64,000 nt of DNA from Phenylobacterium sp. (GCA_003136395.1 PLEH01000283.1:5208-69207), one strand, 5' to 3'. Shown: positions 26,423 through 54,132, counted from the stretch's first letter. Numbers and translations: made by a program. The notes: generated by a model from the letters alone, not told the origin.

Positions 26423-27286
26423 TCAGGCCGCTCGGTCGAAGGGATAGCCCTCCTCGATCGGCAACAGAGGATCGCGCGACCACTCGTTCCAGGAACCGAA
26501 GTAGATTCGGACATCGGTCAGGCCCGCCTCTTCCAGGGCCACGAACGTGTTCGAGGCCCTCGCGCCCTTGAAACAATAGATGACGACCGGCGTGTCGCCG
26601 GTGAGGCCAACGGTGGCGCACTCGGCGAGGATCTCCTCGCGGGACTTGAACATCTGCCCCTGCGCAGTCGGCTTCATCATTCGATACCATTCAAGCCACA
26701 CGGCGCCAGGAATACGGCCTTTGCGGGGGCAGTAGTCCTTCCCATAGGGCGAGGAGCTTTCGCCGATCCATTCGTCCACGTCGCGGACGTCGAGCTTGAC
26801 GACCTTGGGGTCGGCGACGGCGGCCTTCATGCCGCTTAGGTCAACGATGATATGCCCGGTATCCTCACGGACTGGGAACGTTCTGGGTTGAGGTTGTGCC
26901 GGTTCCGTGGCGATCGGCAGGCCAGCCGCGCGCCAAGCCGCGAATCCGCCGTGGAGGACCTTGATCTTCGGATAGCCGAGGTGGCGGAGCAGCACATAGC
27001 CGCGACAGGACTGGCCGAAGCCGGTGGTCATGGACTGCTCATAGACCACTGCGGTCTCGGCGCCGCTCAAGCCGGCGTTTCCGAACGCCGTGGCGAAGGT
27101 GTCCCGGAGCGCCGACAGCCCCTCGGGCGTTGAAGTCGCCAGGTAGGTGAAAACCTCGTGCAGGTTCACGGCGCCCGAGATGTGGGCTTCGGCATGGGCG
27201 GAGGCGTCGCGCGTATCAATAATCACGACCGGTTCGCGGCCCATCATCTGAAAGAGCTCCTGGGGTGACACGAGAACCTGACCCAC
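26423..27286 (-). CDS. Two-domain sulfurtransferase (rhodanese)
   Basis: IDTR..HISGAV, LHGGFAAW, DVR..GRIPGAV, active loop YCFKGAR, GSWNEWS; GTG after GAGGAGG. Confidence 0.9.
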   Translation of the reverse strand: MGQVLVSPQELFQMMGREPVVIIDTRDASAHAEAHISGAVNLHEVFTYLATSTPEGLSALRDTFATAFGNAGLSGAETAVVYEQSMTTGFGQSCRGYVLLRHLGYPKIKVLHGGFAAWRAAGLPIATEPAQPQPRTFPVREDTGHIIVDLSGMKAAVADPKVVKLDVRDVDEWIGESSSPYGKDYCPRKGRIPGAVWLEWYRMMKPTAQGQMFKSREEILAECATVGLTGDTPVVIYCFKGARASNTFVALEEAGLTDVRIYFGSWNEWSRDPLLPIEEGYPFDRAA

Positions 27287-27691
27287 GGGCTTCCTCCTCG
27301 GCAATTGACGCGACAGGATGCGGCGGCGGTCGGTGCGCGCTTTGATCGGCGTCAAAATGCGCATGACAACTCACTGCCCGAGCCACATGGGTCTGCCAGC
27401 GCTCCCTATTGAACGGCTGCGGAGTGTCCCCGATCAGCCGCTGCGCCTCTTCGCGGGTCGTCGTGGTGCGAAGGCAGATGGGCGAGCTATTGCCGCGGTT
27501 GAACGGTACGAGCAGCCCATCCTGCTTGATCCCGAGCCGCGCGGCGGTCCCCCGCCGATCTTGAGCGCACGCGGCTTTGCTTTCGCCTCCGACATCTGTG
27601 GCCAGGAACCCCCGCCAACGCGGCACGTTAATGGAAATTGGGTGAGGCGAGATTTCGGCGAGTGGCCGGCCTTTATTCGAAAGTACAAATC

Positions 27692-28966
27692 ATGACCGCT
27701 TCAAAGCCCAACGTGCTCATCTTGGGTGGAAACTTCGCTGGGCTCGGCGCCGCGCAAAAGATTCGGCAATACGCAAAGGACAAGGTCGACATCACGCTCG
27801 TCGACCAGAAAGCCTATCTCGACTACATCCCCAACATCCCCCTGGAAATATTCGAAGGGCGCGATCCGGCGGTCACCATGCACATGGATCTGGTGGACGC
27901 GCTGGCGCGCGACGACATCACCTTCCGGCAGGCCGAAGTCGAAGCCATCGACGTGAAGGCCCAGAAGGTGACCGTGCGCCCGAGCGAACGGCCCGGCGCG
28001 CCAAGCTATGTGATGACCTACGATTATCTGGTGATCGCGCTGGGCGCGCGGCTGGCCTACGACGAGATCGAAGGGTTCGCGGAATACGGCCATACGGTCT
28101 CCGACGCCTTCCACGCCAATCGGTTGATCGAATTTCTCGAGAATGACTACAAGGGCGGGCCCATTGCGGTGGGCTCAGCGCGGTTCAAGCAGGGCTTAAA
28201 GGGAAAGCCCGACTGGCTGCCGATCGCACTGGCCGCCTGCGAGGGGCCGCCTGTGGAGGTGTCCCTCGCCCTGGCGCACTGGTTGCAAGAACATGACAAG
28301 GGCGGCCCCAAGAACATCACCCTCTTCACGCCCGGTGCGTTGATCGCAGAGGACGCCGGCGAAAAAGTCGTCAAACAGCTGCTCGACGCCGCCTCGTCCA
28401 TGGGCTTCAGCTATATCAACAACACCGAAGACATCACCCGGCTGACCGCGGAGGGGATCGAGTTCGCGAACGGTCAGAAGATCAAGTCCGAGCTCAAAAT
28501 CATCCTCCCGAACTGGGCGCCGCATGCGTTCCTGAAGGGCCTGCCGGTCAGCGACGAGGTTGGCTTCATCATTACCGACATGAAGATGCGTAACCCAGAC
28601 TATCCCAATGTCTTCGCCTGCGGCGACGCCGCGGCCATCACCGTACCGAAACTGGGCGCCATCGGTCACCAGGAGGCCGAAGTCGTCGGCCGTCAGATCG
28701 CCAAGGAGGTGGGCATGATGGAAGCCGAAAAGGCTGACGCGCCCTGGATGCCAGAGGTCATCTGCATCGGCGACATGGGCGGCGGCAAGGCCTTCTACAT
28801 CCACTCAAATTCTTGGTTTGGCGGGGATATCCAGGATCTGGAAATGGGCCGGCTGCCCTATGCTCAGAAGATGATCTACAAGGAGATGTTCTTCCGCAGT
28901 CACGGCAAGATCCCGAACTGGGGCCTGCCTCTGGCGAAGTGGTCCGCCGAAACGCTCAAGGCTTAG
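27692..28966 (+). CDS. Sulfide:quinone oxidoreductase-like flavoprotein resembling type V (Acidianus-like)
   Basis: ILGGNFAG, YDYLVIALGA, GSARFKQG, ACEGPPVE, VFACGD, TVPKLG, PEVICIGD. Confidence 0.75.
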   Translation: MTASKPNVLILGGNFAGLGAAQKIRQYAKDKVDITLVDQKAYLDYIPNIPLEIFEGRDPAVTMHMDLVDALARDDITFRQAEVEAIDVKAQKVTVRPSERPGAPSYVMTYDYLVIALGARLAYDEIEGFAEYGHTVSDAFHANRLIEFLENDYKGGPIAVGSARFKQGLKGKPDWLPIALAACEGPPVEVSLALAHWLQEHDKGGPKNITLFTPGALIAEDAGEKVVKQLLDAASSMGFSYINNTEDITRLTAEGIEFANGQKIKSELKIILPNWAPHAFLKGLPVSDEVGFIITDMKMRNPDYPNVFACGDAAAITVPKLGAIGHQEAEVVGRQIAKEVGMMEAEKADAPWMPEVICIGDMGGGKAFYIHSNSWFGGDIQDLEMGRLPYAQKMIYKEMFFRSHGKIPNWGLPLAKWSAETLKA

Positions 28967-29167
28967 CCTGCAGGCGTGGTGGCTCGCTGAAGGACGTCCG
29001 GCTGATCGAGGCCGAAGCTGGCGGCTGGACCAGATGGGTCCGCCTGGCCGACGGAGCCGCGACAGGCCACATTATAGAGTCGTCGCATATCCGGTCTGGA
29101 GCATTTTGCTGACTGCGTGGGGTAACGCTACCTAGTCTCGACTTTGGGCCTAGTGGCCGGCGCGGCC

Positions 29168-29320
29168 CGGATCAAGCGGGCCTACTCGACCACGCCGCCA
29201 AGTCGGTCGCCTGGTATCGCAAGGCCGCCCTGCAGCTTCTGGGACGGAGGCCATCTTTCGTCTTCCTGCTCCACGCGACGCGGGTGAATGCGGACAGCAT
29301 CGACCAACTGACCGACATTC
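29168..29320 (+). pseudogene. C-terminal fragment of polysaccharide deacetylase
   Basis: Own translation LDHAAKSVAWYRKAALQLLGRRPSFVFLLHATRVNADSIDQL; LLH motif. Confidence 0.55.
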
Positions 29321-29339
29321 CTCATGACCCACGCCTTGT

Positions 29340-29490
29340 CGCCTTCCAGCTTCTCCCCGATGACGAAACCCGTGGCCGGCAGATGGTGGCGTCGCAGTCC
29401 GGCCAACAGCTCTCTGGTGGTGACAGCCGCGAAGGGGGCCGCGTCACTTAGCAACATCGTCGGGATGTCGTCGAACGTGAGCGCGACGCC
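29340..29490 (-). pseudogene. N-terminal fragment of polysaccharide deacetylase
   Basis: VALTFDDIP..ELLAGLRRHHLPATGFVIGEKLEGD (TFDD motif). Confidence 0.65.
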
Positions 29491-29687
29491 TTCCCTCCCG
29501 GCTGTGCGCGCCGAGCATAGCGCAGCCGGTTGGCTGCAGAACGACCTCGAGATGACATAAAAGCCTAAGGAAGCGTACGATGCCGAGGTCTCGGAAGGCT
29601 GGTCGGGCGCGCGGCCCGCCCGAATGCCCCCGCCCTTAACCAGCAGCCGGTTTTGGCCTAGCCTTCCGACAATCTTTGGGGAGCGCC

Positions 29688-30572
29688 ATGGCGGACTGGG
29701 ACGGACGGGGCCTCGTAACGACGGCCTGGTTGGAGGAGAACCTCGCCGACCCCGACTTGCGGGTGTTCGACACGACGGTGCACCTGCGCCCAGCAACGCC
29801 GGGCCCGTACAGAATCGAAAGCGGCCGCGCCGACTACGAAGCCTCCCACGTGCGAGGCGCAGCCTTCCTGGACCTGGCCGTCGACCTGTCGAATCCCGAG
29901 GCTGCCCTGCCGTTCACCAGGCCGTCGCTGGACCGGCTCGCTCACGCGCTCGGCGATGCAGGCGTCAAACGTGGCTCGCGAGTTGTGGTCTACAGCACGA
30001 CGACGCCTATGTGGGCGACCCGGGTGTGGTGGATGCTGCGAGCCTCGGGCTTCGACGATGTCGCGGTGCTTGATGGCGGCTTTCCCAAGTGGATAGCCGA
30101 AGGGCGTCCCGTTGAAGCCGGCGCGCTGCGCTATGCGGCCGCCGATCTGTCGCTGGTCGCCCAGCCGGGCGCCTGGGCCGACAAGCACGCAGTTCTGGCG
30201 GCCATCGACGATGGCGCGGTGTGTACGATCAACGCCCTTTCGCCGAGCGTACACAGCGGCGAGTCGCCGACGAACTACGGCCGCAAGGGCCACATCAAGG
30301 GCAGCCGCAACGTGCCCTACGCCGCCCTGCTGAAGGCCGACGGCACGTACCAAGACGACGCGGAACTGCGCGCGCTTTTCGCGGGCGTCGGAGCGCTCGA
30401 GCGGCCGCGGGTCATCTGTTACTGCGGCGGCGGAATCTCCGCGACCATGGATGCGCTCGCACTGACACGGCTCGGCCACCCGTCCGTGGCAGTCTACGAT
30501 GGCTCGATGTCGGAATGGAGCCGTGACCCCGACCTCCCAATGGAAACCGGTTCCCAGACTTCTGCAGCCTGA
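29688..30572 (+). CDS. Two-domain sulfurtransferase (SseA/MST-like)
   Basis: LVTTAWL, HVRGAAFLD, LDGGFPKW, GHIKGS, active loop YCGGGISA, YDGSMSEWS. Confidence 0.9.
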   Translation: MADWDGRGLVTTAWLEENLADPDLRVFDTTVHLRPATPGPYRIESGRADYEASHVRGAAFLDLAVDLSNPEAALPFTRPSLDRLAHALGDAGVKRGSRVVVYSTTTPMWATRVWWMLRASGFDDVAVLDGGFPKWIAEGRPVEAGALRYAAADLSLVAQPGAWADKHAVLAAIDDGAVCTINALSPSVHSGESPTNYGRKGHIKGSRNVPYAALLKADGTYQDDAELRALFAGVGALERPRVICYCGGGISATMDALALTRLGHPSVAVYDGSMSEWSRDPDLPMETGSQTSAA

Positions 30573-30932: not shown

Positions 30933-31682
30933 TCAGCGGGCCCGAGGAATCCGAACGTCCTGTTCCACCATGCCGGCATTGGGTGTCTTGGCATCGGTGG
31001 CCACGATCCGCAGCTTGTAGCGGCCGGGCGCGGTCGCGGGCAGCGCGGCCTCGTACTCGCTGGTCCGACCGGTGAACCGCATGGGCGCGTGGGCCAGGAT
31101 CCGGGGTCCTTTCATGAGCGTCGCCTCGATACGGTAGTTCGCAGCGTCCCAAAGGCCGCCGGCCTCGATCGGACAACCGCACATCGGGGTGACCTTCGCC
31201 GTGACCTGCAAGGTCCCGTCGGCGGCTGGCGCGGCGGCCGGTTCGATCACTAGACCCGGAAAGCTCAGCACCAGGCCGTCGCCGGTGACGTCGCGGCCCG
31301 GGATGACCCACAGGGTGGACGAGACGTGGATCGCGGCTCCCGGCTTGCCCATGGGTCCTACGCCGTCGGCGCGGACCAAGGTCGGCTGCCGAAGATCGAG
31401 GACCGCGTCGAAGCCGGCGGCGTCCTTGTCAGACAGCGCCTCGCCGCGCTGCCGCGGGGCGCGCATGATCCGCGGCGTATCGCCGGCGCCGCCCCGCGTA
31501 AGGCCCTTCGCGAGCAGGGCTCCGGTTCGCGCATCGGTCAGCGTGATCTCGACCCCGCCCATGTGATCTCCGATGAACTTGGCGTCCAACGCTTGGGCGC
31601 GGACCATCACGTGGGTCGGCTCCGCGAGGGCGGCGGGCGCCAGCAGGGCGAGGGCCGCAGCGAAGGTGAGAGACTTGATCAT
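30933..31682 (-). CDS. Secreted conserved hypothetical protein with MCGCP motif
   Basis: Signal peptide MIKSLTFAAALALLAPAALA; VRAQALDAKFIG; 8 nt downstream of pdo. Confidence 0.75.
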   Translation of the reverse strand: MIKSLTFAAALALLAPAALAEPTHVMVRAQALDAKFIGDHMGGVEITLTDARTGALLAKGLTRGGAGDTPRIMRAPRQRGEALSDKDAAGFDAVLDLRQPTLVRADGVGPMGKPGAAIHVSSTLWVIPGRDVTGDGLVLSFPGLVIEPAAAPAADGTLQVTAKVTPMCGCPIEAGGLWDAANYRIEATLMKGPRILAHAPMRFTGRTSEYEAALPATAPGRYKLRIVATDAKTPNAGMVEQDVRIPRAR

Positions 31683-31690
31683 GACGCTTA

Positions 31691-32656
31691 TCAGACGGTG
31701 TTGAGGGGAATCTTCAGGTAGCGGACGCCGTTGTCTTCCGGCTCGGGAAGATGGCCGCCGCGCATGTTCACCTGCACAGAGGGCAGGATCAGCCTTGGCA
31801 TGTCCAGGGTCCGGTCGCGCGCCTGGCGCAGGGCGACAAAGTCGGCCTCGCTGACGCCCTCATGCACATGAAGGTTTTCGCGCCGCTCGGCGCCAATGGT
31901 GGTCTCCCAGGCATAGGTGTCGCGGCCGGGCGCCTTGTAGTCGTGGCAGAGGAAAACGCGGGTCTTGTCGGGGAGCGCCAGCAGTCGCTGGATCGAGGTG
32001 TAGAGTGTCGCGGCGTCGCCGCCGGGGAAGTCGCAGCGGGCCGTGCCGTAGTCCGGCATGAACAGGGTGTCGCCGACGAACGCCGCGTCGCCGATGACAT
32101 AGGCCAGACAGGCCGGCGTGTGGCCCGGGACATGAAGGGCTATCGCCTGCAGGCCACCGATCGCGAAGCGCTCGCCGTCCTGGAAGAGGTGGTCGAACTG
32201 GCGCCCGTCACGGGCGAAGTCCGGGCCGGCGTTGAACAGCTTTCCGAAGGTGTCCTGCACCCGCACGATCTTCTCGCCGATCGCCAGGCGACCGCCCAGA
32301 GTAGCCTGAAGATAGGGCGCGGCCGACAGGTGGTCGGCGTGGGCGTGGGTCTCCAGCTGCCAGACCACGTCCAGCCCCTCGGCCTGGACATAGGCGAGGA
32401 CCGCGTCGGCCGACCCGTGCGCCGTGCGGCCCGAGGCCGGATCATAGTCGAGCACGCTGTCGATGATGGCGCAGGCCTTCGACGCCGGGTCGCGCACCAC
32501 ATAGGTTACGGTGAAGGTCGCCTCGTCGAAGAAGGCCTTGACCTGCGGGCGTTGGGCCGGGGCGGCGACTCCGGCGTCAACGATCGCCACGGCGCTTGCC
32601 ACGGCCGCATCGGATAGGGAGGTCGGATCGCACATCGGAGAACTCGCAGGTTGCAT
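31691..32656 (-). CDS. Persulfide dioxygenase (ETHE1/Blh-like metallo-beta-lactamase fold)
   Basis: LETHAHADHLSA, PGHTPAC, GDTLFMPDYGTARCDFPGG, LCHDY, PSVQVNMRGG. Confidence 0.9.
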   Translation of the reverse strand: MQPASSPMCDPTSLSDAAVASAVAIVDAGVAAPAQRPQVKAFFDEATFTVTYVVRDPASKACAIIDSVLDYDPASGRTAHGSADAVLAYVQAEGLDVVWQLETHAHADHLSAAPYLQATLGGRLAIGEKIVRVQDTFGKLFNAGPDFARDGRQFDHLFQDGERFAIGGLQAIALHVPGHTPACLAYVIGDAAFVGDTLFMPDYGTARCDFPGGDAATLYTSIQRLLALPDKTRVFLCHDYKAPGRDTYAWETTIGAERRENLHVHEGVSEADFVALRQARDRTLDMPRLILPSVQVNMRGGHLPEPEDNGVRYLKIPLNTV

Positions 32657-32671: not shown

Positions 32672-32693
32672 TATATGCGAATATACGCAGATA
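32672..32693. promoter_or_regulatory. Palindromic operator copy 1 (pdo / tauE)
   Basis: TATATGC-gaatatac-GCAGATA. Confidence 0.7.
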
Positions 32694-32717
32694 CAAGTCG
32701 GATTGACGTTCGCCCTC

Positions 32718-33491
32718 ATGTCCACGTTCACGATCGTCTCAGCCCTGATGAGCGGCGCCCTCGTCGGCGCGCTGCTCGGCCTGTTCGGCGGCGGCGGCTC
32801 TGTGCTGGCGACGCCGCTGCTGCTGTATGTCGTGGGCATTCGCGACCCTCACGTGGCGATCGGCACCTCCGCCGCCGCCGTGGCCGTGAACGCCGCGATG
32901 AATCTGGTCGGTCACGGCCGGGGCGGACGGGTGAAGTGGCCGTGCGCGACAGTGTTTGCGGGCGCGGGCCTACTCGGGTCCTTCCTGGGTTCAAGCCTCG
33001 CCAAGGCCGTCGACGGCCAGAGGCTGCTGCTGTTCTTCGCCTTCGCCATGGCGGCTATCGCGGTCTCCATGCTTCGCCGGCCCAAGTCGGAAGGCGATCC
33101 CGAAGTCCGCATCACCTGGCCCCTGATCCTGAAGCTGGCGCCGGTCGGCGTGCTCACGGGCCTCGCCGCCGGCTTCTTCGGCATCGGCGGCGGGTTCCTG
33201 ATCGTTCCCGGGCTGATGGCGGCCACGGGCATGACGCTGGCCAATGCCGCCGCCTCGTCGCTGCTCTCGGTGGCGTTGTTCGGCGCGGCGACCTCGCTGA
33301 ACTACGCGATCTCGGGTCTCGTCGATTGGCCGATCGCCGGGCTGTTCATTCTCGGAGGTCTTGCCGGCGGCGCCTTAGGTGTACGCGGCGCCGGCGCGCT
33401 CGCCGCCCGCGCGCTCCTGGCGCGGCGGCTCTTCGCGTCGCTGGTCCTCGCCGTGGCCGTCTATGTGGCGTGGAGGGCGACCCACGGATGA
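32718..33491 (+). CDS. TauE/SafE sulfite exporter family
   Basis: GLFGGGGSVLATP, AIGTS, GFFGIGGGFLIVP. Confidence 0.9.
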   Translation: MSTFTIVSALMSGALVGALLGLFGGGGSVLATPLLLYVVGIRDPHVAIGTSAAAVAVNAAMNLVGHGRGGRVKWPCATVFAGAGLLGSFLGSSLAKAVDGQRLLLFFAFAMAAIAVSMLRRPKSEGDPEVRITWPLILKLAPVGVLTGLAAGFFGIGGGFLIVPGLMAATGMTLANAAASSLLSVALFGAATSLNYAISGLVDWPIAGLFILGGLAGGALGVRGAGALAARALLARRLFASLVLAVAVYVAWRATHG

Positions 33492-38033: not shown

Positions 38034-38055
38034 TATTTGCGTATCTTAGCATATA
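38034..38055. promoter_or_regulatory. Palindromic operator copy 2 (cydDC / cydABX)
   Basis: TATTTGC-gtatctta-GCATATA. Confidence 0.7.
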
Positions 38056-43936: not shown

Positions 43937-43982
43937 TAGCATGGCCGGAATCGATCCGCCGCCACTTTGGAAGGTCTTGAAC

Positions 43983-45426: not shown

Positions 45427-45753
45427 CTACCTCGCGCGGTAGATGCCGCTGAGCGTCTCCAGCACCTGCACAGCAGCGGGATCGTCCAGGCGATAGTAGA
45501 TGGTCTGGCCTTCGCGGCGGGTGGCGACCACGCCCTCGGCGCGCATCTTGGCCAGATGCTGCGAGGCGGCCGACTGGGCCAGCTTGGCGTGGTCGGCGAG
45601 GTCTCCGACCGAGGTTTCGCCCTCAACCAGGCGGCACAGCAGCAGCAGTCTCTGTTCGCTCGCCAGGAGCTTGAGAAGGCGCGCTGCGGGACTAACGCAG
45701 CCTGCCAGGTCGGAGACGTCCTCGGTGACGACTTGGCTTGAGGTGGCGGTCAT
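45427..45753 (-). CDS. ArsR/SmtB regulator, BigR/SqrR-like, lacking the C-terminal Cys
   Basis: LKLLASEQRLLLLCRLVEGE, SQHLAKMR, TRREGQTIYY; ends GIYRAR. Confidence 0.85.
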   Translation of the reverse strand: MTATSSQVVTEDVSDLAGCVSPAARLLKLLASEQRLLLLCRLVEGETSVGDLADHAKLAQSAASQHLAKMRAEGVVATRREGQTIYYRLDDPAAVQVLETLSGIYRAR

Positions 45754-45819: not shown

Positions 45820-48800
45820 TCATGCCGGCTTCCTTGGCAGCGGCACGCCATCATCGCGCAGGACCACATAGATCGCCGGGATCACCAGCACGGTGAGCAG
45901 GGTCGACGAGGCCAGTCCGAACAGCAGCGAGATCGCCAGGCCCTGGAAGATCGGGTCGGTCAGGATCACGGCCGCCCCGATCATGGCCGCCGCCGCCGTC
46001 AAGACGATCGGTTTGAAGCGGATCGCGCCGGCCTCCAGCAGGACTTCCCGCAATGAGCGCCCGGCGGTCTGGCTGTGACGGATGAAGTCCACGAGCAGGA
46101 TCGAGTTTCGGACGATAATGCCGGCGAGCGCGATGAAGCCGATCATCGAGGTGGCGGTGAACGGCGCCCGGAACAGGATGTGCCCGATGACGATGCCGAC
46201 CAGGGTCAGCGGAATCGGGGTCAGGATCACCAGCGGCAGGCGGAAGCTTTTGAACTGGGCGACGACCAGGACGTAGATGCCCAGGATGGCGACGCCGAAG
46301 GCGGCGCCCATATCGCGGAAGGTCACCCAGGTGATCTCCCATTCGCCGTCCCACAGCACGGTCGGCCGGCTCTCGTCGGTCGGCTGGCCGTGCATGCGGA
46401 TGTCAGGTTTGGGGACATCCTTCCAGTCGCCCTGACGGATGGCCTTGTCGACCGCCATCATGCCGTAGATCGGGGCTTCATAGGCGCCGGCGAGCTCGCC
46501 CATGATCATGTCCACGTCACGGCCGTCGCGGCGGAAGATATGGGTCGAGCCGGGCTCGTTCGAGGCCGTGGCGACCTCGCCCAGCGACACCAGCCGCCCC
46601 CCGGCCGGGCCTTGTGAGACCGCCACCGGCATAGCGGCCAGGCCCTCGCCCCAGCTGCGGGCCGATTGCGGCAGGCGCACGGAAATCTCCAGCGGATCGC
46701 GGCCCTCGCCGCGATGGGCGTAGCCGACCACCTGCCCACCCAAGGCCGCGGCGATCGAGTCATAGACGTCGCGGTCGCTGACCTTCAGCGCCTCCAGCCG
46801 GTCGCGGTCGGGAACCAGGCGTAGGCCGGGGCGGGGCTGGCCGTAGCTGTCGTCGATGTCGACGATGTAGGGCACCGAATGGAACGTGGCCTTGACCCGC
46901 TCGGCCACGGCCCGGCGGGTCTTGGCGTCAGGCCCGTAGACCTCCGCCAGCAGGGTCGCCATCACCGGCGGCCCGGGCGGCGCCTCGACCACCTTGATCG
47001 CCGCGCCGGCGGGCAGGGCGATCTTGGCGAGCTTCTGGCGCAGGTCGAGCGCGATGGCGTGGCTCGAGCGATGACGCTTGCCCTTGTCGGCCAGGGCGAC
47101 GGAGAGGTCGCCCATCTCCGGCCTGTTGCGCAGGTAGTAGTGGCGCACCAGGCCATTGAAGTTGAACGGCGAGGCCGTGCCGGCATAGGCGTCGATGGCG
47201 ACGACTTCCGGCAGGCCGCGGGTGACGATCGCCGCGTCGGCCAGGGCGCGCTGCGTGGCTTCCAGCGACGTGCCTTCCGGCATGTCGAGCACCACCTGCA
47301 GCTCCGACTTGTTGTCGAAGGGCAGCAGCTTCACGGTCACGGTCTTGGTGGCGAACATGGCGCAGGCCACGATGGTGGCGAGGCCAACCCCGATCAGGAA
47401 GGTCCAGGCGGACTTGCGCGTCCCGATCACCCGGGTGGCGACCTTGCGGTAGAGCGCGCCGAGCTTCCCTTCGTCGTGATGCCCGCCGCCCGCCGTCAGG
47501 GTCTTGCGGGCGAAGCGGACCATCAGCCAGGGCGCGATGACCACGGCCACGAAGAAGGAGAAGACCATCGCCGCCGAGGCGTTGACCGGGATCGGGGCCA
47601 TGTAGGGGCCCATGAGGCCGGAGACGAACAGCATCGGCAGCAGGGCCGTAACCACGGTCAGGGTGGCGACCACAGTCGGATTGCCAACCTCGGCCACGGC
47701 GTCGATGGCGGCGTCGACTCGGCTTCGACCGTCGGCCATGCCCCAATGCCGGGCGATGTTCTCGATCATAACGATGGCGTCGTCGACCAGGATGCCGATC
47801 GAGAAGATCAGGGCGAACAAGCTGACCCGATTGATCGTGTAGCCCAGGAGATTGGAGGCGAAGAGGGTCAGGAGAATGGTCGTCGGGATAACCACCGCGG
47901 TGACGCCCGCCTCGCGCCAGCCGATGGCGAAGCCGATCAGGACGACGATGGAGAGTGTCGCCAGCCCGAGGTGGAACAGAAGCTCGTTGGCCTTCTCGTT
48001 GGCGGTCGCGCCATAGTCGCGTGTCACCACCACGCTCAAACTGTCCGGCAACAGGGAGCCCTTTAGCGCCTCAACCCGCGCCAGCACGGCCTGAGATACG
48101 ACCACGGCGTTGGCGCCCTTGCGCTTGGCGATCGCCAGGCTGACGGCCGGCGCCTCGCTCCAGCCCTGGCCGGCGCGCGCGTAGCGCCAGGCCCGGGCCT
48201 GGTCCTCGCGCGGGCCCTCGATCACTTGAGCGACGTCGCGGACATAGACGCTCTCGCCCTTGGTGGAGGGTAGGGCGAGCAGGCCGATCTGGGTGGCGTT
48301 GGCCAGCGTCCGCCCGGCGGTGACATCGACGGCCTGGCCGCCGTTGCGCACCTGGCCCGCCGGGAACGCGCGATTGGCCTGGCGGATGGTGTCCATCAGG
48401 GCGCCGAGCGACACGCCGTGCTGCGCCAGCCGCGCGGGATCGGGCTCGACGCGGATCTCCTGGGGCCGGCCGCCGACGATGAAGGTCAGGCCGACATTGT
48501 CGACCTTGGCGACCTCGGTCCGGAGCTTGCCCGCCAGCTCGAAGAGCGCCTGGTCCGTCCACTGGCCCGTCGCGCCCGGCTTGGGCGACAGGGTCAGGAC
48601 AAGGCTGGGCACATCGTTGATGCCGCGCGTCTGGATCAGCGGCTCGGCGATCCCCGCCGGGATCCGGTCATAGTTGGCGCGGATCTTCTCATGGATGCGC
48701 ACGGCCGCGGCGTCCGGATCGGTCCCGACGTTGAAGCGGGCGGTGACCATGACCTGGTTGTCGTCGGCGAAGGTATAGACGTGCTCGACGCCGGCCACGC

Positions 48801-49032
48801 TCTTGACGATCGTCTCCAGCGGCTTGCCGACCAGTTCGACCGCGTCCGGCGCCCGCAGGCCAGGCGCGCCGACCATGATGTCGACCATGGGCACGCTGAT
48901 CTGCGGTTCCTCCTCGCGCGGGATCGAGACCAGCGCCAGCAGGCCCACGGCGATGGCCGCCAGCAGGAAGAGCGGCGTCAGCGGCGAGCGGATGGTCGCC
49001 CTGGTCAGCCGGCCGGAGAGACCGAGGTTCAT
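45820..49032 (-). CDS. RND efflux permease
   Basis: PREEEPQI, GILVDDAIV, GIIVRNSILL, RFKPIVLT. Confidence 0.92.
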   Translation of the reverse strand: MNLGLSGRLTRATIRSPLTPLFLLAAIAVGLLALVSIPREEEPQISVPMVDIMVGAPGLRAPDAVELVGKPLETIVKSVAGVEHVYTFADDNQVMVTARFNVGTDPDAAAVRIHEKIRANYDRIPAGIAEPLIQTRGINDVPSLVLTLSPKPGATGQWTDQALFELAGKLRTEVAKVDNVGLTFIVGGRPQEIRVEPDPARLAQHGVSLGALMDTIRQANRAFPAGQVRNGGQAVDVTAGRTLANATQIGLLALPSTKGESVYVRDVAQVIEGPREDQARAWRYARAGQGWSEAPAVSLAIAKRKGANAVVVSQAVLARVEALKGSLLPDSLSVVVTRDYGATANEKANELLFHLGLATLSIVVLIGFAIGWREAGVTAVVIPTTILLTLFASNLLGYTINRVSLFALIFSIGILVDDAIVMIENIARHWGMADGRSRVDAAIDAVAEVGNPTVVATLTVVTALLPMLFVSGLMGPYMAPIPVNASAAMVFSFFVAVVIAPWLMVRFARKTLTAGGGHHDEGKLGALYRKVATRVIGTRKSAWTFLIGVGLATIVACAMFATKTVTVKLLPFDNKSELQVVLDMPEGTSLEATQRALADAAIVTRGLPEVVAIDAYAGTASPFNFNGLVRHYYLRNRPEMGDLSVALADKGKRHRSSHAIALDLRQKLAKIALPAGAAIKVVEAPPGPPVMATLLAEVYGPDAKTRRAVAERVKATFHSVPYIVDIDDSYGQPRPGLRLVPDRDRLEALKVSDRDVYDSIAAALGGQVVGYAHRGEGRDPLEISVRLPQSARSWGEGLAAMPVAVSQGPAGGRLVSLGEVATASNEPGSTHIFRRDGRDVDMIMGELAGAYEAPIYGMMAVDKAIRQGDWKDVPKPDIRMHGQPTDESRPTVLWDGEWEITWVTFRDMGAAFGVAILGIYVLVVAQFKSFRLPLVILTPIPLTLVGIVIGHILFRAPFTATSMIGFIALAGIIVRNSILLVDFIRHSQTAGRSLREVLLEAGAIRFKPIVLTAAAAMIGAAVILTDPIFQGLAISLLFGLASSTLLTVLVIPAIYVVLRDDGVPLPRKPA

Positions 49033-50060
49033 TTCGCGGCCCCGGCCGGGGTCAGGACGTCGCCGGCCCGAAGTCCGGACAGGACCTCGACCGTGTTGGC
49101 GGACGGGCCGGCCGTGGTCTGGATGGGCGTCTCGGAAACCGTGTTGTCGGTGCGGACCAGGCGGACGTAGTCGATCCCAAAACGGGTGACGACATAGGTG
49201 CGGGGCACGACCAGCGCCTGGCGCTCGCCGACCTTGATCTGGGCGCGGACGCGCTGGCCGATCAGGTCCTGCGGCAGGCCCGCCGCGCTGACATCGGCGG
49301 TGACCTGGCCGCCGGTGACCGACGGATAGACCTGGGTGATCGTGCCTCGCGTGGCGACGCCGCGCAGGTCCTCGGCCGCCAGCTGGACGACATCGCCGAC
49401 CTTCAGGGCGCGGGCCTGGCCTTCGGGCAGTTCGATGCGCACCACCATCGGCCCGGCGGTGATCTTGGCGACCGTCTGGCCGGGCATGACGACGGAGCCG
49501 ATCGGGACGTCGGCGACCAGCACTCGGCCGGCGGCCGGCGCCAGGATCGCGCCCTGGGCGCCGAGTTCGGCGCTGGCGCCGCGCTGGGCGCGGGCCGCGG
49601 CAAGGTTGGCGTTGGCCGCCTTCGTCTGCGCCTCGACCTGGTCGAGCCGGGCCTGGGCGTAGACGCCGTGGGAGAAGAGATCGCGGGTGCGGGCGAGGTC
49701 AGCCTGGGCGCGGGCGGCTTCGGCCGCGGCGGCTGTGACCTGGGCGTCGAAAGCGCCGGTCTGCAGGGCGAGGCGGTCGTCTTTCACCCGGCCAATCACC
49801 TGGCCCTGGCGGACCGTGTCGCCTTCCTTGACACTCAAACTGACAAGCACGCCGGAGATCCGCGCGCGGGCCTCGGCCATGTCGCGAGTCGTGAGCGTCG
49901 CCGGGACCGGTTTCAGGTCGGCGACGGTCTGGGCCTGGACGGTCAGGCGGCCCGGGGCCGGCGCGGTCTGCGCGGCGGGGACGATGGGCTTGGAGTCCCC
50001 GCAGGCGCCCAGCAGCAAGGCCGCCCCTAAGGCGCTGATCAGATACGGCCGTGACGCCAT
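49029..50060 (-). CDS. RND periplasmic adaptor (lipoprotein)
   Basis: Lipobox LLGAC; VKEGDTVRQGQ lipoyl-like motif; APAAGRV. Confidence 0.88.
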   Translation of the reverse strand: MASRPYLISALGAALLLGACGDSKPIVPAAQTAPAPGRLTVQAQTVADLKPVPATLTTRDMAEARARISGVLVSLSVKEGDTVRQGQVIGRVKDDRLALQTGAFDAQVTAAAAEAARAQADLARTRDLFSHGVYAQARLDQVEAQTKAANANLAAARAQRGASAELGAQGAILAPAAGRVLVADVPIGSVVMPGQTVAKITAGPMVVRIELPEGQARALKVGDVVQLAAEDLRGVATRGTITQVYPSVTGGQVTADVSAAGLPQDLIGQRVRAQIKVGERQALVVPRTYVVTRFGIDYVRLVRTDNTVSETPIQTTAGPSANTVEVLSGLRAGDVLTPAGAAK

Positions 50061-50095
50061 GGTTCGCCCTCCCGAGCTGGTCTTGTGACTGACGG

Positions 50096-50425
50096 TTAGC
50101 CGGTAACCGTGGGCAGGCCGGCGGCCTTCCAGGCCGCGAGCCCGCCCGCGAGATGCGTTTCGACGGCCTGGTTTGCCTTGCGGCAATGGTCCACCGCCAT
50201 CGCCGAGCGCTTGCCGCCGGCGCACTGCAGGACAACGGTCTTGCCGCCGGCGTCGGGCAGGGCGGCCGGGTTGAAGGTCGAGAGCGGGACGTTCAGCGCG
50301 CCGTCGATCTTCTCGGCGGCGAACTCGTCCGGTTCGCGCACGTCGATCAACAGGATCTGATGGGCGTCGAGGGCGGCCTTCACCTGCTGCGGGGTGGGGT
50401 CCTTGGTCTTGGGGGCGCCGAACAT
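50096..50425 (-). CDS. Single-domain rhodanese
   Basis: LIDVREPDEF..KIDGA, QCAGGKRS, LAGGLAAW. Confidence 0.9.
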   Translation of the reverse strand: MFGAPKTKDPTPQQVKAALDAHQILLIDVREPDEFAAEKIDGALNVPLSTFNPAALPDAGGKTVVLQCAGGKRSAMAVDHCRKANQAVETHLAGGLAAWKAAGLPTVTG

Positions 50426-50453
50426 GCGGAGGACTCCTTGAGGGGGCGCGCGG

Positions 50454-50759
50454 TCAGGGGACCGCGCAGAACAGGCGGGACAGGGTCTCGACAACGGCGC
50501 GAGCCTGGCCGCCTTGCAGGCCGTAGTAGATGGTTTGGCCGTCGCGGCGGGCGGCGACCACGCCGTCCCGGCGCAGCAGACCCAGGTGCTGGGACGCCAG
50601 GCTTTCGCGCACGCCCAGCATCTCGGCGAGCGCGCCCACCGACTGCTCGCCGTCGAGCAGCGCGCAGACGATCATCAGCCGATGCGGGTTCGCCAGCGAC
50701 TTCAGCAAAGCGCAGGCGTCGTCGGCCGAGGCCTTCAGGGCGTGGGCTTGTAAATTCAT
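50454..50759 (-). CDS. BigR/SqrR-type persulfide-sensing ArsR repressor
   Basis: KSLANPHRLMIVCAL and C-terminal LFC (two-Cys signature); SQHL, RRDGQTIYY. Confidence 0.85.
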   Translation of the reverse strand: MNLQAHALKASADDACALLKSLANPHRLMIVCALLDGEQSVGALAEMLGVRESLASQHLGLLRRDGVVAARRDGQTIYYGLQGGQARAVVETLSRLFCAVP

Positions 50760-50766
50760 AGTTGCG

Positions 50767-50788
50767 TATATGCAGCTATTCACATATA
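50767..50788. promoter_or_regulatory. Palindromic operator copy 3 (repressor-rhodanese-RND / sqr operon)
   Basis: TATATGC-agctattc-ACATATA, 8 nt upstream of the repressor ATG. Confidence 0.7.
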
Positions 50789-50837
50789 TAGTCAAGCGAT
50801 CGAGACGATCACCCTAGGGACCAGGTCGGGACCCGCC

Positions 50838-50918: not shown

Positions 50919-52199
50919 ATGGCCAAGCCGCGCATAGTCATCCTGGGCGCCGGACTGGGCGGCGCGATCGCCGCCTTCGAGGTCAAGGACGCCGTCGGCG
51001 ACAAGGCCGAGGTCAGCGTCGTCTCCCAGGGCGACACCTTCCACTTCGTCCCGTCCAACCCGTGGGTCGCCGTCCATTGGCGCAAGCGCGAGGCCATCGA
51101 GGTCAAGCTGCCGCCGGTCTTCAAGAAGCGCGGCGTCGGCTTCTCGCCTGCCGGCGCCAAGCGGGTGCTTCCGGGCGAAAATCGCCTCGAACTCAATGAC
51201 GGGACGACGCTCGACTACGACTATCTGGTCATCGCCACCGGTCCGGACCTGGCCTTCGACGAGGTCCCCGGGCTTGGACCGCACGGCGGCTTCACCCAGT
51301 CGGTCTGCCATGTCGATCACGCCGAGATGGCCGCCGCAGCCTTCGACCGCTTTGTCGAAAACCCCGGCCCGATCGTGGTCGGGGCCGTGCAAGGCGCCTC
51401 CTGCTTCGGCCCGGCCTACGAATTCGCCATGCTGCTGGATACCGAGCTGAAGCGCCGCAAAATCCGCGACAAGGTGCCGATGACCTTCGTCACCTCCGAA
51501 CCCTACATCGGCCACCTGGGCCTGGACGGGGTCGGCGACACCAAGGGGCTGCTCGAGAGCGAGATGCGCGAGCGGCACATCAAGTGGGTCACCAACGCCA
51601 AGGTCGCCTCGGTCGAGGCCGGCATGATGCATGTCGAGGAAATCGCCGACGACGGTTCGGTGAAGGCCACCCATGACCTGCCGTTCGCCTTTTCGATGAT
51701 GCTGCCGGCCTTCCGGGGCGTCGCCGCCATGCGCGGGATCGAAGGCCTGACCAATCCGCGCGGCTTCATCGTCGTCGACAAGCACCAGCGCAATCCGACC
51801 TTTCCGAACGTCTTCGCACTTGGCGTCTGCGTGGCCATCGCGCCGACCGGCAAGACCCCGGTGCCCGTCGGCGTGCCCAAGACCGGCTTCATGATCGAGA
51901 GCATGGTCACCGCCATCGCCAAGAACCTGGGCCAGATCATCGGGGGTCAGCCGACCACCAACGAGGCGACCTGGAACGCCTTCTGCCTGGCGGACTTCGG
52001 GGACGGCGGCGTGGCCTTTGTCGCCCAGCCGCAGATCCCGCCGCGCAACGTCAACTGGTCGGCCGAGGGCAAGTGGGTCCATCTCGCCAAGGTCGCCTTC
52101 GAGAAATACTTCCTCGGCAAGATCAAGCGCGGCGAGAGCGAGCCCTTCTACGAAAAGCTGGTCCTGGACGTCATGGGCCTGCGCAAGATCAAGGGCTGA
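50919..52199 (+). CDS. sqr: Sulfide:quinone oxidoreductase, type I
   Basis: FVPSNPWVAV, QSVCH, GASCFGPAYEF, GVPKTGFMIE, CLADFGD, PQIPPRN; GGAGG RBS. Confidence 0.93.
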   Translation: MAKPRIVILGAGLGGAIAAFEVKDAVGDKAEVSVVSQGDTFHFVPSNPWVAVHWRKREAIEVKLPPVFKKRGVGFSPAGAKRVLPGENRLELNDGTTLDYDYLVIATGPDLAFDEVPGLGPHGGFTQSVCHVDHAEMAAAAFDRFVENPGPIVVGAVQGASCFGPAYEFAMLLDTELKRRKIRDKVPMTFVTSEPYIGHLGLDGVGDTKGLLESEMRERHIKWVTNAKVASVEAGMMHVEEIADDGSVKATHDLPFAFSMMLPAFRGVAAMRGIEGLTNPRGFIVVDKHQRNPTFPNVFALGVCVAIAPTGKTPVPVGVPKTGFMIESMVTAIAKNLGQIIGGQPTTNEATWNAFCLADFGDGGVAFVAQPQIPPRNVNWSAEGKWVHLAKVAFEKYFLGKIKRGESEPFYEKLVLDVMGLRKIKG

Positions 52200-52202
52200 C
52201 CC

Positions 52203-52664
52203 ATGCGCCAGTTCGTCTGCTCGGCCTGTGGCGCGGCCAATCGCGCGCCGGACGGCAAGGATCCCCTGGCGGCCAAGTGCGGTCGCTGCGGTGTGGCCTT
52301 GTTCACCGCCCATCCAACCGAGGTGGACGCCAAGGCCCTCAGCGCCCACCGCGCCTCCACCAAGGGCGCGGCGGTGCTGGTTGATGTCTGGGCGCCTTGG
52401 TGTGGCCCCTGCCGGGCGATGGCCCCGAACTACGCCGCCGCCGCCAAGAAGCTGGAGCCAGACGTCCGCCTCCTGAAGCTCAACTCGGAAGCCGAACCGC
52501 GGGCGTCCGCCGAGCTGGGCGTCTCCGGCATCCCGACGCTGCTGCTCTTCAAGGACGGCCAGGCCATCGCCCGTACGTCCGGACTGATGAGCGCCGATCA
52601 GATCGTCGCCTGGACGCGCCAGGCCTTGGCTCAGGCACAAGCACGAGCCCCCACAGGACGTTGA
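52203..52664 (+). CDS. trxC: Thioredoxin with N-terminal zinc finger (TrxC-like)
   Basis: CSACG..CGRC plus WAPWCGPC. Confidence 0.88.
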   Translation: MRQFVCSACGAANRAPDGKDPLAAKCGRCGVALFTAHPTEVDAKALSAHRASTKGAAVLVDVWAPWCGPCRAMAPNYAAAAKKLEPDVRLLKLNSEAEPRASAELGVSGIPTLLLFKDGQAIARTSGLMSADQIVAWTRQALAQAQARAPTGR

Positions 52665-52666
52665 AC

Positions 52667-52870
52667 ATGACTGTCGACCGTATGGTTTTCGCATTCGCCG
52701 GCCTGGTCATCCTTGCCGGCGTCGCGCTCGCGCACTTCGTCAATCCCTGGTGGATTCTCCTTTCCGCTTTCGCGGGCCTCAACATGTTCCAGTCGGCGTT
52801 CACCGGCTTCTGCCCCGCGGCGATGGTCTTCAAGAAGCTGGGGTTCAAACCCGGCCCCGCCTTCCGTTGA
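52667..52870 (+). CDS. DUF2892 / YgaP-like membrane protein
   Basis: GLNMFQSAFTGFCPA. Confidence 0.87.
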   Translation: MTVDRMVFAFAGLVILAGVALAHFVNPWWILLSAFAGLNMFQSAFTGFCPAAMVFKKLGFKPGPAFR

Positions 52871-52875
52871 TCCCG

Positions 52876-54132
52876 ATGCGCGCGCTCCTGGTCCTGGGGT
52901 TTGCGGCGGGCTTGGCCGCGCCGCAGAGCGCATTCGCCCTGTCGCTACAGGACGCGATCACGCTCGCCCAGCGCGCCAATCCCGCGGTCGCCCAATCCAA
53001 GGCGCAGACGGACGCGGCCGATGCGCGGTTGGCTGAGGCCCGGGCGGGACGCCTGCCCTCCCTCACGCTCTCCGGCGAAGCCGGGCAGGGGACCACGGAC
53101 TTGGGCGGGTTCTTCGGCTTCGGCCGCGCCGACGTGTCGCCGCGCGGCGCGGCCCTCGAACTGCGCCAGCCCTTGTTCACGGGTGGCGCGGTGAGCGCCG
53201 CGATCGAACGCTCCCGGCAGGGGCGTGACGCCGCCCTGGCCCAGGCCGGGGGCGCCAAGGCGCTGCTCGCGACCCAGGCGGCGGAGGCCTATGTCGCGGT
53301 CCTCGCGGCGCGGGAAATCCTGGCGCTAAACGTGGCGCAGGTCCGCCAGATGGGCGAGATCGCCGGGCAGGCGGAGTTGCGGTTCAAGGGCGGCGAGACC
53401 CCGCGCACCGACCTTGCCCAGGCGCAGGCCAGGCTGGCCGAAGCGCAGGCCGGCCTTGCGCGGGCCAGCGGCGACGTCGCCCGCACTCGCGCGCATTTCA
53501 TCTCCGTCGTGGGGGAGGAGCCGGAGAACCTGGAACCGCTGCCCGCGCCGCCCCCCATTCCGCCGTCGTTGGACGAGGCCATGGCCATGGCGTTGCAGAG
53601 CAGTCCGGCCCTTGTCGCCGCCCAGGCCCAGGCGCGCGCCGCCGACGCCGGGGTGCGCTACGCCCAGGCCGAGCGGTTTCCGAGCCTCGCCCTCACCGCC
53701 ACGGCCAGCAGCGCGCGCGACCAGTTCTTTCCGGGCTACCGGGCGGACGGTGTCACCGTTGGCGTGCAAGGGCGCTGGACGCTGTTTGCAGGCGGCTTGA
53801 TCAATGGCCGGGTCGACGAGGCCCGGGCCGGCGCGCGCGGCGCGCAATCGGCGGCGGATAGCGCGCGCGCCCAAGTCCGCGAGGCGGTCATCAGCGCCTG
53901 GGAGGATGTGCAGACGTCCCGGGCCCTGGTCGCGGCGGCCGCCGATCAGGCGAGCGCGGCGGCGAGCGCACTCGACAGTGTCCGCAACGAGGTCCGGGTC
54001 GGACAAAAGCCGACCCTCGATCTGCTCGACGCCGAACGCGAAGCGCTGGCGGCGCAATCTGCTGGGGTCGCCGCCCGAGGCGGCGCGGTCGCCGCGGCCT
54101 ATCGCCTGAACGCATTGCTCCATGCCGACTGA
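52876..54132 (+). CDS. TolC-family outer-membrane protein
   Basis: Signal peptide, LSLQDAITLA, PRTDLAQA, RVGQKPTLDLLDAE. Confidence 0.87.
   Translation: MRALLVLGFAAGLAAPQSAFALSLQDAITLAQRANPAVAQSKAQTDAADARLAEARAGRLPSLTLSGEAGQGTTDLGGFFGFGRADVSPRGAALELRQPLFTGGAVSAAIERSRQGRDAALAQAGGAKALLATQAAEAYVAVLAAREILALNVAQVRQMGEIAGQAELRFKGGETPRTDLAQAQARLAEAQAGLARASGDVARTRAHFISVVGEEPENLEPLPAPPPIPPSLDEAMAMALQSSPALVAAQAQARAADAGVRYAQAERFPSLALTATASSARDQFFPGYRADGVTVGVQGRWTLFAGGLINGRVDEARAGARGAQSAADSARAQVREAVISAWEDVQTSRALVAAAADQASAAASALDSVRNEVRVGQKPTLDLLDAEREALAAQSAGVAARGGAVAAAYRLNALLHAD

Follow-up and report, generated by a model that had tools for sequence, protein, structure and literature searches.

A probable composite sulfide-defense gene cluster, likely the cargo of a tRNA-Ile genomic island, in a Phenylobacterium-like bacterium from peat

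The 64,000-nucleotide (nt) stretch analyzed here (the window; Phenylobacterium sp., GCA_003136395.1, PLEH01000283.1:5208-69207) is part of a 71,965-nt contig whose source is the peat metagenome run X1, where 99% of its sampled words are found. Between positions 26423 and 54132, which are the stop codons of the first and last genes concerned, it carries a set of genes for sulfide oxidation and cytochrome bd respiration. This cluster is probably a composite defense island against sulfide and reactive sulfur, and belongs to the cargo near the integrase in a genomic island exceeding 40 kb that occupies a tRNA-Ile gene of a Phenylobacterium-like member of the peat Caulobacteraceae. The reading is built on gene identities, catalytic residues, an att site, synteny and a conserved operator, all of them observed directly. 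Genes were called via third-position G+C (GC3) in a window whose G+C ranges from 62 to 74%, and were named by Pfam, NCBIfam and comparison with solved structures. A preliminary description had proposed a Caulobacteraceae-like host, and the window's glucose-6-phosphate dehydrogenase (Zwf) bears this out, with 87% identity to that of a Phenylobacterium metagenome-assembled genome (MAG) against 64-68% for other Caulobacteraceae MAGs.

The clustering is not a product of chance, as the same gene sets are syntenic on the plasmids pISP1 and pIBU218 and in dozens of metagenome loci. A megablast search against plasmids places the core of the cluster on these conjugative sphingomonad replicons, and the window's persulfide dioxygenase (PDO), CydA and CydB, its RND (resistance-nodulation-division) permease and a sulfide:quinone oxidoreductase (SQR) are 72-75% identical to the pISP1 proteins at the amino acid level. 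All enzymes named beforehand (two SQRs, three rhodaneses, PDO, TauE, TsdA, the cyd products, a universal stress protein [USP] and a P3A-type ATPase) are present, with catalytic residues conserved wherever checked, and no sox gene occurs among the called window genes, the SoxA-like domain of TsdA being the sole match. The preliminary description had overlooked the RND permease with its adaptor and TolC channel, a split YgaP, two SqrR/BigR-type regulators, TrxC, a DsbA, a DsrE-like protein, a methyltransferase and a secreted 249-residue protein. The genes that would act on sulfide and its first products are the following.

26423..27364, minus strand: RhdA, a tandem-domain rhodanese without signal peptide (active-site loop CFKGARA)
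27692..28966, plus strand: type V-like SQR (best PDB match Acidianus ambivalens SQR, 3h8i, 6e-50)
29688..30572, plus strand: RhdB, a tandem rhodanese resembling 3-mercaptopyruvate sulfurtransferase (loop CGGGISA)
30933..31682, minus strand: secreted 249-residue protein with two Ig-like beta-sandwich domains and an invariant MCGCPIE motif (coding frame backed by GC3)
31691..32656, minus strand: stand-alone, MxPDO-like PDO (PDB 9g8t, 5e-131; MxPDO 4ysk, 1e-117)
32703..33491, plus strand: TauE/SafE anion exporter (Pfam PF01925, 5.7e-46)
33488..34102, plus strand: class I S-adenosylmethionine-dependent methyltransferase with weak TPMT/TehB similarity, its start overlapping the TauE stop (33488-33491)
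34095..34793, plus strand: membrane-anchored DsbA-like thiol:disulfide oxidoreductase (CPIC)
50096..50425, minus strand: RhdC, a single-domain rhodanese equivalent to the rhodanese half of a split YgaP
50919..52199, plus strand: type I SQR (Acidithiobacillus ferrooxidans SQR 3sz0, 1.3e-146 over residues 5-425)
52203..52664, plus strand: TrxC
52667..52870, plus strand: DUF2892/YgaP-like two-helix membrane protein of 67 residues, which with RhdC makes up the split YgaP

Both SQRs and the PDO retain their catalytic residues. The enzyme at 50919 belongs to type I, its QSVC, GASC and NAFC motifs aligning Cys128, Cys160 and Cys356 (Aquifex aeolicus SQR 3hyv also matches, 2e-101). In its type V-like companion the redox pair Cys178/Cys350 is conserved and the FAD-attaching Cys129 is replaced by Ser; identity is modest, and the subtype may be III or V. 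The PDO has the metallo-beta-lactamase fold and a HAHADH sequence that fits the HxHxDH metal motif, and it is 72-73% identical to the pISP1 enzyme. Against NF040641 it scores 408 bits (cut-off 625), over the PDO part only (positions 138-422), and falls below the cut-off because the N-terminal domain of Blh is absent. A 475-codon open reading frame (ORF) at TauE resolves into TauE plus the separate methyltransferase in a different frame, a pairing that recurs in one metagenome locus (L109) and on pIBU218. On these assignments the two SQRs would oxidize H2S, with sulfane sulfur as the product and quinone as the electron acceptor, the rhodaneses and PDO would convert sulfane sulfur to sulfite and thiosulfate, and TauE may export these anions.

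The secreted 249-residue protein has no Pfam match, and a single UniRef entry names DUF4198 for it. It is 40% identical to a hypothetical protein of the pISP1 cluster and has a homologue in the pIBU218 cluster; its AlphaFold model reaches a pLDDT of 87.7. Because a fold search returned generic matches only (TM ≤0.35), and because the family, which is widespread in Phenylobacterium as well as in Caulobacter, has a core-gene setting in the latter, it is not counted as a proven part of the pathway.

The middle of the cluster is occupied by the respiratory genes and those directly downstream of them.

34798..36399, minus strand: CydC, and 36396..38018, minus strand: CydD, an ABC exporter (best NCBIfam matches)
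38114..39682, plus strand: CydA (PF01654, 1e-166)
39694..40842, plus strand: CydB (PF02322, 1e-102)
40855..40974, plus strand: CydX (PF08173, 8e-16)
41016..41450, plus strand: universal stress protein
41447..43936, plus strand: P3A-type P-type ATPase resembling plasma-membrane H+-ATPases (TIGR01647, 668.6 bits against a cut-off of 615.5), its start overlapping the USP stop (ATGA)
43941..44456, plus strand: secreted DsrE/YchN-like protein with a conserved Cys
44463..45410, plus strand: TsdA-type diheme cytochrome c, i.e. thiosulfate dehydrogenase/tetrathionate reductase (PDB 5lo9, 1e-81; a second solved TsdA, 1e-54)

CydA is closest to Escherichia coli bd-I (706 bits), and the combination of CydABX with CydDC places the oxidase in bd-I, from which its sulfide resistance is predicted. 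Both exporter subunits score below their cut-offs (CydD, TIGR02857, 431 bits for a cut-off of 435; CydC, TIGR02868/NF008364, 265-275 bits for 329), and they are 44-48% identical to pISP1 proteins annotated as CydD and as an ATP-binding cassette protein. An exact look-up of the window CydA in public assemblies found nothing. The bd-I oxidase of other bacteria resists sulfide; here it would reoxidize the quinol produced by the SQRs, with CydDC aiding its assembly.

TsdA carries the heme motifs CSNCH and CARCH. Its Cys in ERVQECFKYSMN corresponds in the alignment to that of the Allochromatium vinosum and Marichromatium purpuratum enzymes, the axial ligand of heme 1 (Cys96 in A. vinosum). At heme 2, its ANMP sequence lines up with the ligand region of M. 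purpuratum TsdBA, an Asn-Met arrangement that the Campylobacter TsdA enzyme has as well. The periplasmic enzyme would thus interconvert thiosulfate and tetrathionate. The earlier proposal that it oxidizes thiosulfate to tetrathionate holds as far as the enzyme and its defining residues go; with an Asn-Met heme 2 and no TsdB in the window, catalysis may run in either direction.

The P3A ATPase matches AHA2 (5ksd) at 1e-123, with Asp684 (FMTDFVK) and Asn106 (VVNAV) conserved, the Arg655 column unmatched and the C-terminal regulatory domain missing; its ion is predicted. Among 80 related loci a USP gene lies directly upstream in about 13, and sulfur genes lie within 10 kb in eight (including Cupriavidus, Microvirga and Rhodanobacter aciditrophus) compared with none of 32 controls, a difference that is not significant (p=0.06). 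Copies of RhdA (72-73% identical) adjoin P3A ATPases in two Cupriavidus genomes. Plasmid-borne relatives, at most 52% identical and lacking a sulfide context, occur in Acidiphilium, Methylocella tundrae and lichen isolates, organisms of acidic habitats; these hosts hint at a function in acid tolerance, which would fit peat as well as a sulfide role does. A proton pump that counters acidification, as proposed beforehand, is thus speculative, and the link between P3A ATPases and sulfide is put forward as a lead only.

The right-hand part of the cluster pairs the type I SQR with an efflux system.

45820..49032, minus strand: RND permease of a distinct clade (72% identical to pISP1)
49029..50061, minus strand: periplasmic adaptor (48% identical to pISP1)
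about 52843..54132, plus strand: TolC-family outer-membrane channel (start approximate)

The permease is a member of the ACR_tran superfamily (5e-140) and reaches none of the curated RND subfamily cut-offs for HAE1 multidrug or HME CzcA/CusA pumps, scoring 404 bits for RND_permease_2 (cut-off 1250) and 259 bits for CzcA/CusA (cut-off 701). A metagenome scan with it retrieves 48 loci at 57% identity or more, followed by a sharp drop to 32 loci at about 24%, which served as controls. At least one gene of the module is within reach in 32 of the 48 loci and in none of the 32 controls (Fisher p=1e-10). The 48 loci include type I SQR in 16, DUF2892 in 24, ArsR in 21, RhdC in 10 and TrxC in seven; where at least 2.5 kb is available upstream of the adaptor gene, the figures rise to 14/23 for SQR and 18/23 for DUF2892. 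The cyd genes adjoin the RND-SQR module in three loci (L086, L107 and L123). Of all the partners of type I SQR, the RND-TolC pump and the SqrR/BigR-type regulators are the best conserved, and the dedicated RND-adaptor-TolC pump may clear the periplasm or membrane of a product derived from sulfur. A 2025 survey noted RND pumps adjacent to two-Cys ArsR regulators (PMC12423496), and in Azospira suillum an SQR-RND operon (Dsui_3440-3443), a DUF2892 protein and UspA are strongly sulfide-induced (PMC5358917).

Shared control of these modules is suggested by two regulators and a set of promoter sites.

45427..45753 (or to 45777), minus strand: ArsR1, a regulator of the SqrR/BigR clade at the tail of the RND operon
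50454..50759, minus strand: ArsR2, a two-Cys repressor of the SqrR/BigR/HlyU/YgaV type, predicted to sense persulfide
50760..50800: promoter-operator region between arsR2 and SQR, TTGACTATATAT...CATATACGCAACT-ATG, near-identical across nine metagenome loci
32676..32689: operator-like palindrome TGCGAATATACGCA in the divergent PDO/TauE promoter, 13 of 14 positions matching the consensus (one mismatch)
38038..38051: weaker operator-like site TGCGTATCTTAGCA in the divergent cydDC/cydABX promoter, 11 of 14 positions (three mismatches)

ArsR2 is closest to HlyU, BigR and SqrR, and its IVC...LFC residues align with both Cys of these proteins (Cys41/Cys107 in SqrR), the pair that forms a tetrasulfide bridge in this type of repressor. 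The promoters of its orthologues in the nine metagenome loci contain a perfect palindrome, TGCGTATATACGCA, and a -10-like box 7 nt ahead of the ATG. This hexamer, conserved in all nine, suggests a leaderless arsR2 transcript. A first 18-nt operator pattern, drawn from the window's own two sites, involved circular statistics and was replaced by the palindrome, whose consensus derives from the arsR2 promoters of other loci and was then searched for in the window. Matches with up to three mismatches occur there at the PDO/TauE and cyd promoters only. The background is two matches with up to two mismatches in 2.4 Mb, and the PDO/TauE match is far beyond chance. The cyd site lies in a promoter of about 100 nt and has 16 of 18 positions in common with the PDO/TauE site. 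On pISP1 a different motif is likewise common to the cyd and SQR promoters.

ArsR2 would accordingly sense persulfide and appears to control the units arsR2/SQR-TrxC-DUF2892-TolC and PDO/TauE-methyltransferase-DsbA, and more weakly cydDC/cydABX. Downstream of cydX, the genes for USP, the P3A ATPase, the DsrE-like protein and TsdA may be read through from cydX: the USP stop overlaps the ATPase start, the other gaps measure 5-41 nt (5 between the ATPase and the DsrE-like gene, 6 between the latter and tsdA), and the single plus-strand terminator-like site in 38.1-45.4 kb lies within cydA, so that none separates cydX from tsdA. Control of cydAB by YgaV has been described in E. coli (PMC9774250), and cydAB is sulfide-induced in several bacteria, among them Acinetobacter baumannii (PMC7315123).

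In its strongest form, which we consider doubtful, this proposal has one persulfide-sensing repressor directly switching a transferable kit for sulfide-proof respiration. The kit would comprise an SQR with an RND-TolC pump expelling SQR-made polysulfide or elemental sulfur, the PDO-TauE unit, and a long cydABX-usp-P3A-dsrE-tsdA transcript that pairs a sulfide-insensitive oxidase with an ATP-driven proton pump, so that membrane potential and pH would be kept up in acid peat even with the heme-copper oxidases poisoned. The enzyme activities, the regulon, the substrate of the pump and the role of the ATPase are all predictions from homology, and a number of observations weigh against the main reading, the composite defense island, itself. 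ArsR1, which has an extra Cys near its N-terminus, keeps the first sensing Cys but not the second (C-terminal) one and so departs from the two-Cys pattern; its sensing may be different or absent altogether. The window's own arsR2 site is degenerate in its left half, and chance alone would give about 0.7 matches of the quality of the cyd site (11/14) in the window. No TsdB-like diheme cytochrome or high-potential iron-sulfur protein that could accept electrons from TsdA is found among the called window genes, and the island holds no sulfite dehydrogenase. Close P3A relatives lack sulfur neighbors in 72 of the 80 loci, and the closest one (83% identical) has neither DsrE nor TsdA nearby. Deletion of the Azospira SQR-RND operon left the rate of perchlorate-dependent sulfide oxidation unchanged (PMC5358917). 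The metatranscriptomes of the same peat study contain no matching transcript. Finally, G+C is 0.62-0.65 at 26-31 kb and 0.67-0.74 at 31-54 kb, with a gene remnant between the two parts.

This last feature belongs to the mosaic structure of the cluster. The G+C step and the remnant point to separate acquisitions.

29182..29796, minus strand: polysaccharide deacetylase gene remnant, read as a recombination scar (partial Pfam match, positions 3-48 of 124; GC3 backs the coding frame)

Adjoining the remnant, a stretch of about 33 nt (29091-29123) shows raised depth in X1, and either side of it can be joined in three alternative ways. Probably two modules recombined here and left a scar, or the stretch is a short dispersed repeat. 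It could be argued from such borders that the theme of the cluster is a coincidence, the modules (RhdA-type V SQR, PDO-TauE, cyd, USP-P3A, TsdA and RND-type I SQR) having been acquired separately at a tRNA hot spot and being controlled independently rather than forming one pathway. Besides the G+C steps and the remnant at module borders, the frequent absence of sulfur genes around P3A relatives and the core-gene setting of the 249-residue protein in Caulobacter, this account can draw on the fact that each module is found alone elsewhere, most RND-SQR loci lacking cyd, PDO, P3A and TsdA genes within 10 kb. It leaves aside, on the other hand, that PDO-TauE, cydDC-cydABX and RND-SQR-TolC recur in order on two conjugative plasmids of another order, that the promoters of different modules have the operator palindrome in common, and that genes are tightly joined by stop/start overlaps (TauE-methyltransferase, USP-P3A) and by the 5- and 6-nt gaps on either side of the DsrE-like gene. 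We regard pure coincidence as unlikely. The description of the 28 kb as an island is accordingly kept in part: the genes form a thematic cluster that is not one unit; it takes up part of a larger element, which extends from 23.1 kb to beyond 64 kb, and is itself a mosaic of three modules or more. Similarly, the complete sulfide-oxidation chain claimed beforehand stands as gene content, with pathway flux, the direction of TsdA and the proton-pump role being inferred only.

A different general function can also be imagined, namely an island against thiol, metal-sulfide or chalcogen (selenite/tellurite) stress, in which the RND pump would export metal-sulfide complexes or organic toxicants, the methyltransferase and rhodaneses would handle selenium or tellurium, and sulfide oxidation would be incidental. 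Export of metal sulfides was proposed for sulfide-induced RND pumps by the Azospira authors (PMC5358917). The methyltransferase is weakly TehB/TPMT-like and RhdA weakly ExtH-like, the plasmid versions add peroxiredoxins, catalases and Dps, and sqr and pdo mutants of Pseudomonas putida alter selenite reduction. A metal-resistance reading was nevertheless rejected on three grounds: the regulators fall in the two-Cys persulfide-sensing clade and not among metal-sensing ArsR/SmtB types, the P-type ATPase is P3A and not heavy-metal P1B, and the permease stays below the CzcA cut-off (259 vs 701 bits). Together with the intact catalytic residues of both SQRs and the PDO, these features make the general stress island quite improbable, and a defense island centered on sulfide and reactive sulfur is the preferred reading.

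The placement of the cluster inside a mobile element rests on features to its left.

23104..23193, minus strand: attL, 90 nt comprising the 3' 46 nt of tRNA-Ile(GAU) (23148-23193, ending ...GTGGCACCA, CCA end) and a 44-nt downstream hairpin
23214..23284, plus strand: pair of 17-nt direct repeats (TTTCACGATATTGTACG / TTTTGCGATATTGTTCG) in the interval from attL to the integrase gene
23313..24869, plus strand: P4-type tyrosine integrase with C-terminal HTH_17 (Pfam Arm-DNA-bind_3, Phage_integrase, HTH_17)

The earlier claims that the cluster lies within an integrase-bearing element and that the trait may be mobile are both upheld. The integrase at 23313-24869 is confirmed with attL adjoining, the cluster lies in the integrase-proximal part, the tRNA repeat stands beside the integrase gene, and homologous clusters reside on conjugative plasmids. 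Together with the unitig graph described below, attL with its tRNA-derived repeat is the signature of an element inserted in the 3' end of a tRNA gene. The hairpin stem measures 14 bp. The 17-nt repeats are possible arm-binding sites of the integrase, a role suggested solely by their position. ARAGORN detects no complete tRNA in the window, and direct-repeat searches that compared the integrase region with the remaining window sequence gave no further att copy. Both attR and the intact tRNA would lie beyond the window, and the element would run from about 23.1 kb past 64 kb, i.e. over more than 40 kb. No conjugation genes are seen in the 41 kb of the element that are available.

The second repeat copy and the intact tRNA are seen in the X1 unitig graph only, at a depth equal to that of the flanks. 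There, a 71-nt unitig (23104-23174) has a depth of 27.9 compared with about 10.5-11.3 for its flanks (about 2.5-fold). Its two entrances are the left flank of the window and a 2376-nt unitig absent from the window, ending ...ACCAAAATTACAATTTATATGGACGAACGA; of its two exits, one leads toward the integrase and the other into a 1626-nt unitig in which the 5' half of the tRNA follows. All of these are at a depth of about 10-11. Joined to the window fragment, this 5' half yields tRNA-Ile(gat) in ARAGORN. The unitig graph alone cannot distinguish the integrated from the excised form.

Since the graph branches at the 71-90-nt att repeat and again at about 29.09-29.12 kb, a mis-join across short repeats could in principle have linked the integrase and att site to the sulfide genes, or 26-29 kb to 30-54 kb. 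Such an artefact is very improbable. Depth in X1 is even, at about 8-12, over 12-32 kb and 44-64 kb; a single unitig (23145-28924) leads from the att repeat via the integrase to the type V-like SQR, and another runs from 51867 to beyond 64000; and both repeats are shorter than one sequencing read. In a related glacier population (X3), 12-22.5 kb is matched, mostly at 90-95% identity, and comparably even coverage of the integrase region and of 54.7-64 kb is absent, a pattern consistent with a strain-specific island.

Several further features of the element and its surroundings were noted. The HTH_17 domain of the integrase, which is excisionase/AlpA-like, lies in the same reading frame, making an integrase-excisionase fusion possible. 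Just outside attL, on the chromosomal side, the plus strand encodes an AbiEi/AbiEii type IV toxin-antitoxin pair (20031-21807), followed by an ORF at 22164-22859 (plus strand) with a faint match to the AbiEi N-terminus. Inside the element, past TolC, 54335-60476 encodes an OsmC-domain protein, two ApbE flavin transferases, an EF-hand protein, a DUF3570 protein and a TlpA-like redoxin, which looks like a further set for periplasmic redox maintenance. A search for an empty site via relatives of the window's pyrroloquinoline quinone (PQQ) dehydrogenase was uninformative on the site, the nearest (90-91% identical) lying in unrelated contexts, one of them beside a type IV secretion system. In that context (metagenome contigs L083/L084), the 90% identical dehydrogenase gene adjoins a complete type IV secretion system, and the gene seems to travel on mobile elements.

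Farther to the left, the window opens with transaldolase and phosphoglucose isomerase domains in one ORF (139-2643, plus strand), which heads a pentose-phosphate row (gnd, zwf, a HAD phosphatase and a DeoC-type aldolase). At 11898-13551 (minus strand) an SdhB-type iron-sulfur subunit and two Sdh_cyt membrane subunits adjoin a quinol-type nitric oxide reductase (9273-11582), and an adjacent SdhA flavoprotein gene is absent. A 168-nt stretch (15409-15576) within a cytochrome b561/molybdopterin-oxidoreductase fusion gene (15140-16858; sulfite-oxidase superfamily, closest to MsrP) recurs at 19227-19393 with 89-94% identity, just past the PQQ dehydrogenase gene. Contigs of the related glacier population skip 19203-19846, which places the second copy in an insertion of about 650 nt.

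Sulfide is a common respiratory poison in waterlogged soils, and detoxification by SQR and PDO, the switch to cytochrome bd and persulfide-sensing repressors have been studied mostly as separate loci in model bacteria. The present island and its plasmid relatives show that environmental Alphaproteobacteria carry these defenses together on mobile DNA, where a single sensor probably governs them. Two leads follow from it, for which culturable carriers of the plasmid versions exist: a distinct RND pump clade, a near-obligate companion of type I SQR, of DUF2892 and of the sensor, and a bacterial P3A-type ATPase that may be connected with sulfide stress. Taken singly, the modules are all of known kinds, and the control by sulfide of SQR-RND and of cyd genes is already published. 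New is that they are consolidated on a tRNA-integrated element, along with TsdA and a P3A ATPase, and apparently share an operator.

Four known systems are closest to the island. The first are the clusters of Sphingomonas sp. MM-1 pISP1 and Rhizorhabdus wittichii pIBU218. These comprise (methyltransferase)-TauE-PDO, TrxC, ArsR, CydCD/CydABX and a homologue of the secreted protein, followed in order by ArsR-RND-adaptor-rhodanese and, divergently, type I SQR-DUF2892-TolC, with an integrase at the cluster end. Unlike the island, they lack the type V SQR, RhdA/RhdB, USP, the P3A ATPase, the DsrE-like protein and TsdA, carry peroxiredoxins, TlpA, DUF2202, DUF3365, catalases and Dps, are plasmid-borne rather than tRNA-integrated, and have a promoter motif of different sequence. 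Both clusters are annotated automatically; the literature on these plasmids, as far as it was accessible, concerns pollutant degradation, and no functional description of the clusters was found in it. The Azospira suillum PS operon likewise unites an RND permease, an adaptor, an SQR and a small unknown protein in one sulfide-induced unit (PMC5358917), whereas, as described, it has no linked bd oxidase, PDO, TauE, TsdA or P3A ATPase. With the BigR/SqrR/YgaV regulons (BigR-blh of Xylella and Acinetobacter, SqrR of Rhodobacter capsulatus, ygaVP of E. coli) the island shares a two-Cys ArsR-family repressor beside PDO, TauE, rhodanese/YgaP and SQR genes and, in the case of E. coli YgaV, cydAB as a further target, which in the island is a putative one. 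It differs from them in its split YgaP (RhdC plus DUF2892), in a PDO devoid of a fused rhodanese or DUF442 domain, and in a bd oxidase that lies inside the cluster instead of being a distant regulon member. Finally, like P4-like tRNA-integrated islands, it has an integrase with an Arm-DNA-binding domain beside a direct repeat of a tRNA 3' end and an AbiEi/AbiEii pair close by; it stands apart from them in its tRNA-Ile(GAU) target, in the C-terminal HTH_17 of its integrase and in a far end that lies outside the window.

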